A DNA stretch of 64,000 nt from an uncultured Alphaproteobacteria bacterium. GTDB taxonomy: Bacteria; Pseudomonadota; Alphaproteobacteria; RF32; CAG-239. The translations under genes and the position numbers were made by a program. Under the pieces are notes generated by a model. That model saw only the letters and a list, made by a program, of their open reading frames with translations, was not told the origin of the DNA and searched no databases. Numbering within the stretch: position 1 is the stretch's first letter; every line of letters starts with the position of its first letter. The stretch spans positions 2,503 through 66,502 of the forward strand of contig CALXTI010000006.1 in NCBI GenBank assembly GCA_944391395.1. Reading direction: 5' to 3'. Below, piece by piece: positions 24,506 to 26,442 of the stretch.

Positions 24506-25669
24506 TTATTTGCCTTTGAACCAGTCGCCAACCCGGTTGCCTAAGTTTAATGCGTCATTACCCGAACCGGCCAGACTTCCCATATCGTTGGTAAAATCGC
24601 CAACGTCTTTGCGGGCATCGCTAATCGTATCCTGCGTATTTTCAATCACATCATTTACACCGGAGTTGTTTATTGCGTCAGAGACCTTATTGTCGCCACG
24701 GATTGTATCGCTGGCAGAGCCAATATTCCCCAGAGCATTTTGTATGCCGCTCAAACCGGAGTTTGCCCCCGAGGAAAGATCAAAAGCCGTGGATCCGACA
24801 GAGTCCGCAAGACCTTTAACTTTATCAAAGATATTGCCATCGCCGGATATAACATCACCGATATTTTGCGCACCTTCTTTAACGGTATCCACAATTCCCA
24901 TACCGTATTCAACCGCATTTGCGACATTTTTACCGGCATTAATGACGTCTTTACCGACGCTCACGATATTCTTAATGGTGTCCTTAAAGCTTTTTTTGCA
25001 CTGACCTTTTTTATTAACTTTACCTTCACAGCATTCCTGTTTGCCGTTGACGGTGCGGCAACCATTGCTGTCGTAAGGAGTGGTAAGGCTGTCCAAACCG
25101 GCCAAACCGCCTTCTTCCAGTCCTTCCACACCACCCGGAAGCCCCAATCCGCTGGAATCAATTTCGTCAAGAGGTTCAAACGGTTCGCGACCGCCATTGG
25201 CAGCGCCTTCTTCACCTTCGGTAGCATCCGGGCAAATCGCACCCGTGCAATCCGTTTGATCACTCACGTTGCTGCCCAAGATACTGGCATCGCCGCCGGC
25301 AATAAAGTTATCATAAACATATTCGGAATCTTGTAAATTTGCACCGCTGAAGTAATTAATAAACGGCATCATCACTGACAGCAACGACAAACCAATCATA
25401 ATGTAAGCTAAGTGTTTGAAGCTGATTTTGTTAAAGACCGCCAAAACGGCAAACATAATCAAACCGAAACCAGCAACGACATAAACAATCTTGCGGACAT
25501 CCTGAATGGTGGTGATCATCTTGTTGGAGATGATTGAAAAGATATCGCCGTCCGCAGCAAAAGCGGCGTTCGGCAAGAAAACAACAATCCCGAGCGCCAA
25601 CAACGCCAATATTTTATTTGCTCTTTCCATCATAGCCGCCTCCATTTTAAAAAAATCAGCCGTCAGCAT
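24506..25669 (-). CDS. VirB2/TrbC pilin-like N-terminal domain (signal peptide plus two TM helices) fused to a ~270-aa Gly/Asp/Asn/Ser-rich tail containing cysteine clusters (387 aa)
   Basis: The N-terminal 110 aa align in pattern with the two virB2 genes (RKIVYVVAGFGLIMFAVLAVF...). The tail contains CTGAICPD and GCRTVNGKQECCEGKVNKKGQCKK. Confidence 0.55.
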   Translation of the reverse strand: MLTADFFKMEAAMMERANKILALLALGIVVFLPNAAFAADGDIFSIISNKMITTIQDVRKIVYVVAGFGLIMFAVLAVFNKISFKHLAYIMIGLSLLSVMMPFINYFSGANLQDSEYVYDNFIAGGDASILGSNVSDQTDCTGAICPDATEGEEGAANGGREPFEPLDEIDSSGLGLPGGVEGLEEGGLAGLDSLTTPYDSNGCRTVNGKQECCEGKVNKKGQCKKSFKDTIKNIVSVGKDVINAGKNVANAVEYGMGIVDTVKEGAQNIGDVISGDGNIFDKVKGLADSVGSTAFDLSSGANSGLSGIQNALGNIGSASDTIRGDNKVSDAINNSGVNDVIENTQDTISDARKDVGDFTNDMGSLAGSGNDALNLGNRVGDWFKGK

Positions 25670-26009
25670 TGACCAGCGTGTCGGTAATGCCGGAAACGCT
25701 GATATCAGCGCCGGTGCCGGCCACCAGATATTGAACCAGCCCCACGGTCAACGCTATCACAATCAGGCCGATGACAATCGCACTCAGCCACTTCCAGTTC
25801 AAAGCGCCGAAAAAGCTGCCGATAGCAATGGCAATAATACCAAAGCCGGCAGCGCCGAATATGATTTTACGCATCCCGCCGAAAATTTCCCAACCGGTGT
25901 TGGTCAGGTTTTCAAACACGGCATAAGAATCCGTTGCGCATAAAATCGAAGAAAGTACAAACGCAAACAAACCTGCGCACACATATTTCTTAAAATTTAT
26001 ACCCAACAT
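25656..26009 (-). CDS. virB2: VirB2/TrbC-family pilin
   Basis: It is 117 aa with a signal peptide followed by two hydrophobic helices (RKIIFGAAGFGIIAIAIGSFFGALNWKWLSAIVIGLIVIAL). Confidence 0.65.
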   Translation of the reverse strand: MLGINFKKYVCAGLFAFVLSSILCATDSYAVFENLTNTGWEIFGGMRKIIFGAAGFGIIAIAIGSFFGALNWKWLSAIVIGLIVIALTVGLVQYLVAGTGADISVSGITDTLVNADG

Positions 26010-26059
26010 TTGTTATGCCCTTTCATTGTCCGTTTCTACTCAGAGAAGACTTGCCATAA

Positions 26060-26085
26060 GGGAAAAGCCTTTTACGGCTTTTCCC
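26060..26085 (-). terminator. Perfect 10-bp stem-loop between the two virB2 genes. It is a candidate attenuator or partial terminator after the first pilin gene.
   Basis: The sequence is gggaaaagcc-ttttac-ggcttttccc. A moderately U-rich tract follows on the transcribed (minus) strand. Confidence 0.35.
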
Positions 26086-26100
26086 TTACAATCGTGATTG

Positions 26101-26442
26101 TTATTTATTGCCAAAAGTATCGCCGAGCGTGCTTCCGACAACTTCATTATTACCCGTAGCGTATTCAACAATAGCACCGGCAGCGGCCAAAATAGCCAAA
26201 CCGACAGCCAGTCCGGCAAACCACGGCCATTTAACTTTACCGAAAATAGCCTGGAAAGCCAACGCCACCAAACCAAAACCACCAATCACGAAAACAATGG
26301 TTTTAACTGCCTGGAAAACGTTAACGGCTTTCGTTCTGGCCGTATCCATAACAGATTGTGCGTTTGCATCGCCAATCATCGTCACGGCAAAGACCAGAGC
26401 CAAGGCAAACAGGGTAAAGGCATTATTCTTAAGAAACTTCAT
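26101..26442 (-). CDS. virB2: VirB2/TrbC-family pilin. It is the first gene of the operon.
   Basis: It is 113 aa with a signal peptide (ending ANA-Q) and two hydrophobic helices (KTIVFVIGGFGLVALAFQAIFGKVKWPWFAGLAVGLAIL). Confidence 0.65.
   Translation of the reverse strand: MKFLKNNAFTLFALALVFAVTMIGDANAQSVMDTARTKAVNVFQAVKTIVFVIGGFGLVALAFQAIFGKVKWPWFAGLAVGLAILAAAGAIVEYATGNNEVVGSTLGDTFGNK

Follow-up and report, generated by a model that had tools for sequence, protein, structure and literature searches.

A conserved set of three VirB2-family pilins, one with a long, probably exported tail, in a type IV secretion system of an uncultured gut alphaproteobacterium

We analyzed a stretch of 64,000 nucleotides (nt) from an uncultured Alphaproteobacteria bacterium (RF32; CAG-239), here called the window (contig CALXTI010000006.1 of assembly GCA_944391395.1, positions 2,503 to 66,502), with a focus on three adjacent genes of its type IV secretion system (T4SS), named virB2a, virB2b and virB2c. 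All three encode proteins of the TrbC/VirB2 pilin family, and the product of the third continues beyond the pilin module into a long tail. What appears to be new here, as judged from sequence, is a VirB2 family member with a lineage-specific exported tail inside a conserved three-pilin set. Multiple virB2 genes are already known from the Bartonella Trw system, Anaplasmataceae and a patescibacterial T4SS, but none of the described cases has a pilin fused to a large domain. The best explanation for the whole, which we favor with modest confidence, is a pilin sub-operon in which VirB2a would be overproduced and VirB2c would serve as a minor pilin that displays its tail outside the fiber.

The pilin genes are located directly upstream of virB3-virB4, which are followed by genes for VirB8, VirB9, VirB10 and VirB11. 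The first gene of the sub-operon, virB2a (26101..26442, on the minus strand, as are all other features of the cluster), encodes a 113-amino-acid (aa) TrbC/VirB2 pilin (Pfam TrbC E 9.7e-10, 39.0 bits) with a signal peptide at residues 1-28 (..DANA/QSV, the slash marking cleavage), helices at residues ~49-67 and 74-92 and a conserved C-terminal GDTF. After a spacer of 91 nt, virB2b (25656..26009) encodes a 117-aa TrbC/VirB2 paralog (Pfam TrbC, 23.9 bits), in which the signal peptide ends with ..DSYA/VFE and the C terminus is a conserved ITDTL. The 375-aa product of virB2c (24506..25633) comprises a pilin and the tail (Pfam TrbC, 27.1 bits). With the Pfam TrbC/VirB2 (PF04956) cut-off at 27.9 bits, the window copy of VirB2a scores above it and those of VirB2b and VirB2c marginally below. 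At the family level, 76 of 76 VirB2c members match TrbC (best E 5e-8), several with a precomputed PF04956 assignment, and VirB2a has relatives in 920 clusters, almost all of which, among the matches listed, carry PF04956. NCBIfam returned no match for any of the three pilins.

An earlier note, made from the sequence alone, had proposed that the three genes are VirB2/TrbC paralogs; N-terminal alignment, Pfam and a hydropathy scan agree with this assignment. In the alignment, the N-terminal domains share 27-28% identity (28% between VirB2b and VirB2a, G-F-G core included), with G55-F56-G57 invariant, and the hydropathy scan revealed three segments in each paralog, corresponding to a signal peptide and two hydrophobic helices. 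AxA-type cleavage sites could be read from the sequences of VirB2a (ANA/Q), VirB2b (SYA/V) and VirB2c (AFA/A). The inter-helix loops, read from the alignment as GKVKWPW, GALNWKW and NKISFKH for VirB2a, VirB2b and VirB2c, each contain lysine; in the corresponding loop of T-pilus VirB2, Arg91 binds lipid (bioRxiv 10.1101/2022.09.25.509369). VirB2a and VirB2b fit the usual pilin size of ~90-145 residues before processing, whereas the 375-aa VirB2c does not. By its domain composition, VirB2c is a domain fusion with a VirB2 module, not a typical TrbC/VirB2 member. For its long open reading frame (ORF), the earlier note had given a length of 387 aa. The ORF coordinates (25669..24506) stand, but the real start is ATG 25633, 12 codons later, because a Shine-Dalgarno GGAGG (25639..25643, read from the sequence) is located 5 nt upstream of this codon, homologues begin there and a database protein 100% identical to VirB2c (P0001) also comprises 375 aa.

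The anatomy of VirB2c, given in 375-aa numbering, was assessed with a family alignment of 76 members (308-682 aa) and an AlphaFold2 model of the full-length protein built on it. Residues 1-100 (25334..25633) contain the signal peptide (1-26, ..AAFA/ADGD) and the pilin core (27-100), in which 26 positions are invariant among the 76 sequences (DVRKIVYV.AGFGL.MF..A.FNKISFKHL.Y....L..L....F..YFSG); the two long pilin helices were modeled with a predicted local distance difference test score (pLDDT) of 65-77. Residues 101-175 (25109..25333) comprise YDNF, CxxxxCP (C129/C134) and an acidic Gly/Asp/Glu-rich linker of variable length, with a net charge of -17, low conservation and pLDDT <50. YDNF (~residues 107-110) aligns with GDTF of VirB2a and TDTL of VirB2b, indicating that the C terminus of the short pilins is retained. 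Residues 176-212 (24998..25108) form a small four-cysteine beta knot (NGCR..G..CC.GK..G.CKK; C192, C201, C202 and C212), the only confidently modeled part of the tail, with short strands and pLDDT 76-85 over residues 181-210. The positions of these cysteines and of the 129/134 pair bear out the CxxxxC and CC clusters that had been noticed in the tail before. Across the 76 members, linker and knot together span 66-167 aa, CxxxxC is found in 61/76 and the knot motif in 44/76. The remainder, residues 213-375 plus the stop codon (24506..24997), is a Gly/Ala/Asp/Asn/Ser-rich helical domain with a hydrophobic period of 3.5 residues (heptad) and a conserved [WF]F(G)GK end. Mean pLDDT of the model was 55.6, and the helical tail is unreliable in it.

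No Pfam or NCBIfam family covers the VirB2c tail. When 1.84 billion representative proteins were searched with a profile of the tail alone, 41 clusters were retrieved at E 1e-10 or better. In these, apart from one 113-aa fragment, the tail starts at ~residue 160-280 of a 316-682-aa protein, and inspected members carry the same conserved pilin core; weaker matches were generic helical-repeat proteins, and a free-standing tail was seen on truncated contigs only. Since the strong matches sit downstream of the same pilin core, the tail is, on this profile evidence, specific to the VirB2c pilin subfamily. Between species, it is much less conserved than the core; within species, as examined in three species-level clusters, amino-acid polymorphisms are 4-6 times more frequent per residue in the tail than in the core. 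The tail looks extracytoplasmic: its signal peptide, the conserved pairs of cysteines, the flexibility of the linker, the lack of a further hydrophobic segment and its comparatively fast evolution would fit an exposed, tethered domain. Among distant VirB2c relatives (P0108, P0110, P0115 and P0116), some add 40-90 residues between signal peptide and core, and several distant relatives carry an extra Ala/Glu/Gln-rich coiled-coil of 100-200 residues beyond the tail, in some cases ending in '..ACK'. These N-terminal inserts and post-tail extensions suggest repeated elaboration of the exposed parts of VirB2c.

To place the pilins in a broader context, homologues were collected from protein and genome data. 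VirB2c homologues formed 102 clusters among 5.8 billion proteins searched, and at 28-68% identity most of these covered >90% of the query. When genomes were scanned with one representative per species, 37 VirB2c loci were recovered, all in metagenome-assembled genomes (MAGs) of uncultured gut, rumen or faecal Alphaproteobacteria, some of them labeled 'Azospirillum sp. 51_20' or UBA1254, on locus contigs of up to 244 kb. Three TrbC genes in the order a-b-c precede virB3-virB4 in almost all loci and also on further metagenome contigs. A virB2a orthologue is present except in three of 42 related loci, which are truncated or lack the gene. VirB2a matched its own orthologues at E 4e-32 to 3e-56 and VirB2b its own at E 2e-20 to 6e-70, compared with E 5e-9 to 4e-16 for VirB2b against VirB2a and E 1e-5 to 1e-16 for cross-paralog matches overall. 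Mean pairwise identity of the pilin cores across 35 loci was 0.73, 0.71 and 0.66 for VirB2a, VirB2b and VirB2c, respectively, versus ~27% between paralogs. As own orthologues are matched best and the cores are about equally conserved, these comparisons indicate that each paralog is its own orthogroup, that the triplication predates the clade and that selection keeps each copy. VirB2a is 100% identical on 70 public contigs, and pilin cores show zero to one variable site within species. Two relatives contain a second virB2a copy upstream of the triad (L013, 4991-5799; L021, 4205-5561; L numbers denote loci), giving four pilin genes. A tblastn search of PLSDB identified no VirB2c homologue on plasmids, and literature searches for T4SSs of RF32/CAG-239 or tailed VirB2 proteins returned nothing relevant.

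A second line of evidence concerns RNA structure. Starting 11 nt past the virB2a stop codon, a hairpin at 26056..26089 comprises 14 pairs (13 Watson-Crick and one G-U) and a GUAAAA loop, with no U-tract. The perfect 10-bp hairpin at 26060-26085 described in the earlier note is real and constitutes its core (26085..26076 with 26069..26060), the pairing extending to 26089..26056. Its folding energy is -22.6 kcal/mol, and the 101-nt intergenic region has z = -4.98 relative to shuffles. A single hairpin of -15 kcal/mol or better is located 2-22 nt past the virB2a stop in 33/35 distinct loci; when 60-nt windows were compared, hairpins of this stability followed the virB2a stop in 26/35 cases versus 3/35 dinucleotide shuffles and 6/31 virB4 coding windows. 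The stems differ between lineages, with compensatory changes in 5/9 pairs of a 16-sequence alignment. Within the window, six distinct perfect hairpins of at least 10 bp were detected (17 stem/loop variants in the scan output, against a shuffle mean of 1.1), of which the virB2a hairpin is the sole intra-operon one and lacks an A-run/T-run. The other five (1113..1137, 37503..37530, 38580..38621, 52888..52911 and 62096..62127) are all intergenic at gene ends, and most show the A-run/GC-stem/T-run form typical of bidirectional intrinsic terminators; those at 37503..37530 and 38580..38621 have a common core, AAAAAATCCGGA...TCCGGATTTTTT.

The pilin genes are followed by a second hairpin (24465..24498; -23.8 kcal/mol), 7 nt past the virB2c stop and within the 133 nt that separate this stop from virB3. 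At this place, 18/34 loci have a hairpin of -15 kcal/mol or better. Most of those in the 'Azospirillum sp. 51_20' subclade consist of a GC stem with a U-run behind it (for example, L029, L030, L033-L037 and L041) and, from this form, are predicted to be true terminators. Rfam 15, run over 24000..27200, assigned no family to either hairpin and gave three sub-threshold chance matches of 22-23 bits against cut-offs of 43-80. Between virB2a and virB2c, a promoter scan returned a single weak match (9/12), inside virB2b.

These data suggest the following model. One ancestral virB2 would have undergone two ancient duplications, giving rise to three distinct, non-redundant pilins; in support, the single VirB2 of the closest annotated T4SS relative, on plasmid pMVF16-3 of Microvirga sp. 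VF16 (L043, 658071-688371), is 35/30/30% identical to VirB2a/b/c and has the same C-terminal GDT[FL]. VirB2a, probably the major pilin, would be the main fiber subunit, and the stem-loop past its stop codon would raise its message over those of the downstream genes, either because transcription partly terminates there or because a processed 3' end is protected. The second hairpin would set the pilin genes apart from virB3-virB11. VirB2b and VirB2c would then be minor pilins. In VirB2c, a complete pilin with its short C-terminal motif would be extended by a flexible acidic linker, then by a disulfide knot and finally by a helical domain resembling a coiled coil. The T-pilus has both termini of VirB2 on the outward face of the fiber (bioRxiv 10.1101/2022.09.25.509369). 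Given this outward orientation in solved VirB2 fibers, the VirB2c tail would be placed outside the pilus or, before assembly, in the periplasm. Once exposed, it would act in adhesion or as a cap, which we consider its most likely functions, and pilin topology makes a role as tip adhesin plausible.

Several observations weigh against this model. The argument for VirB2a as the major pilin draws on gene order and the hairpin, and the U-tract expected behind a terminator stem is absent in the window tail GGCAAGUCUU (3 U in 10) and weak or absent in most loci. At least 5 U in the 10 nt behind the hairpin are present in about a third of loci, with 7 U in 10 nt in L001 and L012. A terminator scan did not call the virB2a hairpin. 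It is, by its form, not a canonical intrinsic terminator, and termination is a candidate role only; a stabilizing 3' stem-loop seems as likely as attenuation. The earlier suggestion of transcript attenuation that over-expresses the major pilin is, therefore, retained as far as a conserved stem-loop fits it, but not as canonical termination, given the missing scan call and the weak U-tails. Low-level production of VirB2c is not required, as virB2c has a strong GGAGG ribosome-binding site. VirB6 is thought to be the pilus assembly platform, and with no recognizable VirB6 in the cluster, canonical pilus assembly is not certain. For the tail itself, the helical domain was modeled as helices at pLDDT of only 35-67, a Foldseek search of the VirB2c model against the PDB gave no match at E 0.001 or better, nor any with E below 1, and PDB matches of the VirB2c family profile were limited to generic coiled coils or helical bundles (chemoreceptors, spike HR1 and syntaxin). 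The tail resembles neither a known adhesin nor VirB5 in sequence: its profile matched a profile of four annotated VirB5 proteins with an hhalign probability of 0.15%, and PF07996 (VirB5) appeared neither among the families reported for the window protein nor among the top ones of the 76 members. In addition, the cysteine motifs are absent in a minority of VirB2c family members.

We considered alternative explanations for the tailed pilin. That the long ORF results from an assembly error or a frameshift joining a pilin gene to an unrelated downstream gene, an idea to which only the unusual length for a VirB2 would point, was rejected as having a negligible chance of being correct: full-length homologues (>90% coverage) are present in >100 clusters of independent assemblies and in 37 MAG species, while the tail alone appears on truncated contigs only. 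The third ORF can, thus, be regarded as a genuine pilin with a tail, as the earlier note had read it, its N-terminal domain aligning with VirB2/TrbC and no frameshift artefact underlying its length. A more serious alternative, although in our view rather unlikely, is that VirB2c, and perhaps VirB2b, is a membrane-anchored machine part, with the helical hairpin in the inner membrane or stalk and the periplasmic tail serving as scaffold, pilus base or channel lining, maybe as a stand-in for VirB6. Consistent with such a role, neither the cluster nor the rest of the 64 kb encodes a polytopic VirB6/TrbL-like protein. In the Microvirga system, which has one VirB2, the place of the 237-aa ORF of the window is taken by a 228-aa ORF with multiple hydrophobic stretches. 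The 26 invariant core positions of VirB2c suggest many fixed contacts, and the strong virB2c ribosome-binding site would suit a machine part as well. However, conservation of the core is no stronger in VirB2c than in VirB2a and VirB2b, and the tail, fastest-evolving and polymorphic within species, suits an exposed surface better than a machine interior. A virB6 gene could also sit elsewhere in the genome, and VirB2c has no VirB6 homology. Alternatively, the tail might be a pro-region or passenger that the pilin domain targets and that is then cleaved and released or discarded, which we judge improbable. The complete short-pilin C terminus (YDNF) just before the tail could mark a processing site, and C-terminal trimming of TrbC-type pilins is established for RP4 TrbC/TraF. 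Known trimming, however, removes a few to ~30 residues rather than a conserved 275-residue multidomain disulfide region, no TraF-like peptidase was seen in the cluster, and the flexible linker resembles a tether, not a cleavage cassette.

Other alternatives concern the gene set and the repeat. The three genes might be interchangeable pilin copies with antigenic variation and alternating expression, in the manner of Bartonella Trw or Anaplasma; this would be in line with tandem virB2 genes known from T4SSs without a coupling protein in the cluster, such as Trw (PMC12857230), and with the extra VirB2a in L013 and L021. Their number and order, however, are fixed over 37 species, identity is ~27% between paralogs versus 66-73% within each across the clade, and the near-invariance of the pilin cores within species, with VirB2a unchanged on all 70 contigs, leaves this scenario a slim chance. 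Similarly small is the probability that the inverted repeat behind virB2a acts at the level of DNA, for instance as an operator or a repetitive extragenic palindromic (REP)-like element, or that it is the full terminator of a monocistronic virB2a. The repeat is a perfect palindrome on DNA, and a U-rich stretch follows it in some relatives (L001 and L012). Against an operator, the stem sequence shifts between lineages while pairing is kept, unlike in a sequence-specific site; a REP-like repeat was ruled out, as the hairpin sequence is unique within the window. A full terminator is countered by the absence of the A-run/T-run form of the real terminators in the window and by virB2b and virB2c following closely, with only the weak promoter-like match between virB2a and virB2c.

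If correct, the preferred model of a pilin sub-operon with a tailed minor pilin would have implications for T4SS biology. To our knowledge, every T4SS pilus structure solved to date shows a homopolymer of a single VirB2, with a separate VirB5 probably at the tip. A set of three conserved pilins, all the more with one member bearing a large covalent exported domain, would suggest a pilus that is heteromeric or capped, and nature would here provide an example of display on a pilin of the conjugative type. The hairpin offers a case in which control of stoichiometry by RNA structure can be tested directly in a T4SS operon. The bacteria in question are uncultured Alphaproteobacteria with a wide distribution in the guts of humans, mice and ruminants. 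With no relaxase, coupling protein or recognizable VirB6 near the chromosomal T4SS, the pilins are the best clue to the attachment targets of these bacteria. A bolder version, which we offer as speculation and think doubtful in its entirety, would be a heteromeric pilus of three VirB2 proteins in which VirB2c forms the terminal layer and five tethered coiled-coil tails act as cap or adhesin. As a covalent fusion of pilin and tip, VirB2c would assume the tip-nucleating or platform roles of VirB5 and/or VirB6, both of which lack a recognizable counterpart in the cluster. The system would then serve an abundant, uncultured gut symbiont as an adhesion organelle that has no coupling protein and cooperates with the adjacent type IVb pilus.

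The T4SS cluster spans 1172..26442 (minus strand) and encodes three VirB2, VirB3, VirB4, two VirB8, VirB9, VirB10 and VirB11, consistent with a VirB-like, P-type T4SS. Core genes flank it together with the neighboring type IVb pilus operon, with yidC and engB on one side and addAB, rdgB, rph, aroK, a xerC/D-like gene, atpB and ftsH on the other. A search of the window proteins found no relaxase, VirD4, VirB1 or polytopic VirB6/TrbL-like protein in the 64 kb. Based on these housekeeping flanks and absences, the T4SS of this uncultured gut alphaproteobacterium looks chromosomal and non-conjugative. The virB3-like gene (24082..24372), assigned by position and transmembrane segments, encodes a 96-aa protein with two hydrophobic helices and no Pfam match; it shares 25.5% identity with the annotated VirB3 of Microvirga pMVF16-3, and its length of 96 aa is kept in 38 loci. 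The VirB4 ATPase gene (21660..24146; Pfam CagE_TrbE_VirB, E 8.7e-18) has R388 TrwK as its closest solved structure (E 2.9e-42).

The usual VirB5-VirB6 position is occupied by four secreted, mostly helical ORFs without a family assignment (622, 237, 436 and 1394 aa; 13544..21577, minus strand), the largest of which encodes a long coiled-coil protein. Directly after virB4, the 622-aa ORF (21577..19709) shows 'QWPTLDLSQV' after its signal peptide, resembling the N terminus of VirB5/TrbJ. Against the profile of four annotated VirB5 proteins, it reached a non-significant hhalign probability of 24%, the likeness being limited to the signal peptide and an N-terminal 'IPV.D'/'PV.D'; the 237-aa ORF reached 7.7%. 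Pfam and PDB profile searches returned no VirB5 match for the 622-, 237- and 436-aa ORFs, and the AlphaFold model of the 622-aa ORF is unreliable (pLDDT 38), leaving it a weak VirB5 candidate. These three ORFs were also tried and rejected as relatives of the VirB2c tail (hhalign probability ~0.5% each). Between the two virB8 genes, we identified an unlisted 62-aa lipoprotein ORF (12439..12627, minus strand; MYKK..ILSAC..PVGIGKDVNELKLSPCACI). Its lipobox and a 'PxGIG..LKxSPCACI' motif are common to a 58-aa ORF in the equivalent position of Microvirga pMVF16-3, and it is, therefore, probably VirB7.

Other genes of the cluster and its surroundings also show unusual features. The VirB9/CagX homologue (10045..11664, minus strand) has a C-terminal SPOR (peptidoglycan-binding) domain. 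The region at 2159..10028 (minus strand) contains a giant VirB10 of 1426 aa, with ~1000 residues of beta-flower repeats (PF21785/PF21784/DUF3659) before the TrbI domain, preceded by a 1208-aa protein with a single N-terminal hydrophobic segment, beta-flower repeats and RHS-repeat matches; the two ORFs overlap by 38 nt. Beside the T4SS, a divergent type IVb pilus operon (26964..37482, plus strand) encodes a 604-aa unknown protein, TcpQ, secretin, PilO, a 510-aa unknown protein, a T2SSE ATPase, a T2SSF platform protein and a bundlin-like pilin, and a second small T2SSE-type ATPase gene (37545..38504, minus strand) adjoins it. The pairing of type IVb pilus and T4SS is kept in the relatives L001 and L003-L005 and recalls the thin pilus and T4SS of the IncI plasmid R64, although the T4SS here is of P-type. 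In Logan assemblies of 38%-identity relatives, including L003-L005, many independent locus contigs are nearly equal in length (57,031-57,818 bp), which points to breakpoints that the assemblies have in common (repeats) or, possibly, to a circular element.

Compared to canonical VirB2/TrbC pilins (A. tumefaciens VirB2, RP4 TrbC, R388 TrwL and pKM101 TraM), the proteins described here are alike in their TrbC match, Sec signal peptide, two helices, basic-residue loop and place before virB3-virB4. Canonical systems, however, have one pilin gene of ~100-145 codons rather than three diverged paralogs, one of them with a ~275-residue tail. A further hallmark of the family is polymerization with phospholipid into a five-start helical fiber outside the cell. 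The earlier note had drawn a parallel to Anaplasmataceae and Bartonella Trw. It holds for the presence of multiple virB2 genes, but those systems contain variable arrays and the present one three fixed, anciently diverged orthogroups (PMC3556328, PMC12857230). Bartonella Trw has multiple trwL/virB2 and trwJ/virB5 copies and no VirD4, and functions in erythrocyte adhesion (PMC12857230). The several virB2 genes and the lack of a coupling protein in the cluster are shared, and an adhesion role of the pilus is plausible here. Trw genes are, however, sequence-variable tandem amplifications thought to give variant pili, in contrast to the ancient, order-fixed and individually conserved genes of the window, which has no amplified virB5; no Trw pilin is known to carry such a tail. 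Anaplasma encodes 8-15 short VirB2 paralogs that contain hypervariable regions; their copy number differs between strains, and their expression depends on the host (PMC3556328). With the Anaplasmataceae system (Rickettsiales vir homolog), the gut system shares multiple VirB2, a duplicated VirB8, very large accessory proteins and an alphaproteobacterial P-type T4SS, but its copy number is stable and its cores are invariant within species. We know of no tailed pilin reported in Anaplasmataceae.

The T4SS of Patescibacteria (Southlakia) has a fixed set of six divergent VirB2-like pilins, suggesting a multi-pilin structure (PMC12857230). Fixed, structurally similar and sequence-divergent VirB2 paralogs beside a T4SS are common to both, a likeness drawn by description only, whereas phylum and envelope type differ and no C-terminal fusion has been described there. 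The role proposed for the tail, contact through a helical domain exposed at or on the pilus, resembles that of VirB5/TraC/TrwJ (PMC12857230). VirB5, whose fold is a three-helix bundle with a globular appendage, is a separate secreted protein, unlike the domain covalently joined to a pilin here. For the hairpin, parallels exist in operons with a stoichiometry-setting 3' stem-loop. In pap/fim-type fimbrial operons, as for papA, a stable stem-loop follows the gene of the abundant subunit. 3' stem-loops, acting by selective RNA processing and stabilization, and internal terminators are established means to set subunit stoichiometry in operons (PMC4423207, PMC10667835, PMC9045158). The window shows the same arrangement, with a stem-loop past the gene of the presumed most abundant subunit and less abundant parts following, but lacks a U-tract and is a candidate only.

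The Microvirga pMVF16-3 system, the nearest one from a cultured relative, with VirB4 38.6% and VirB11 41% identical to the window proteins, offers the closest annotated reference; its VirB4 is annotated only as 'hypothetical protein'. Both systems have the same gene order, B2-B3-B4, three unannotated ORFs, a VirB7-like lipoprotein with SPCAC and B8-B9-B10-B11. The Microvirga system is plasmid-borne, with one VirB2, a VirB10 of ordinary size, a MobA/MobL relaxase and VirD4. In contrast, the gut-clade system has no relaxase or VirD4 nearby and is chromosomal, with three VirB2, two VirB8 and giant beta-flower proteins.

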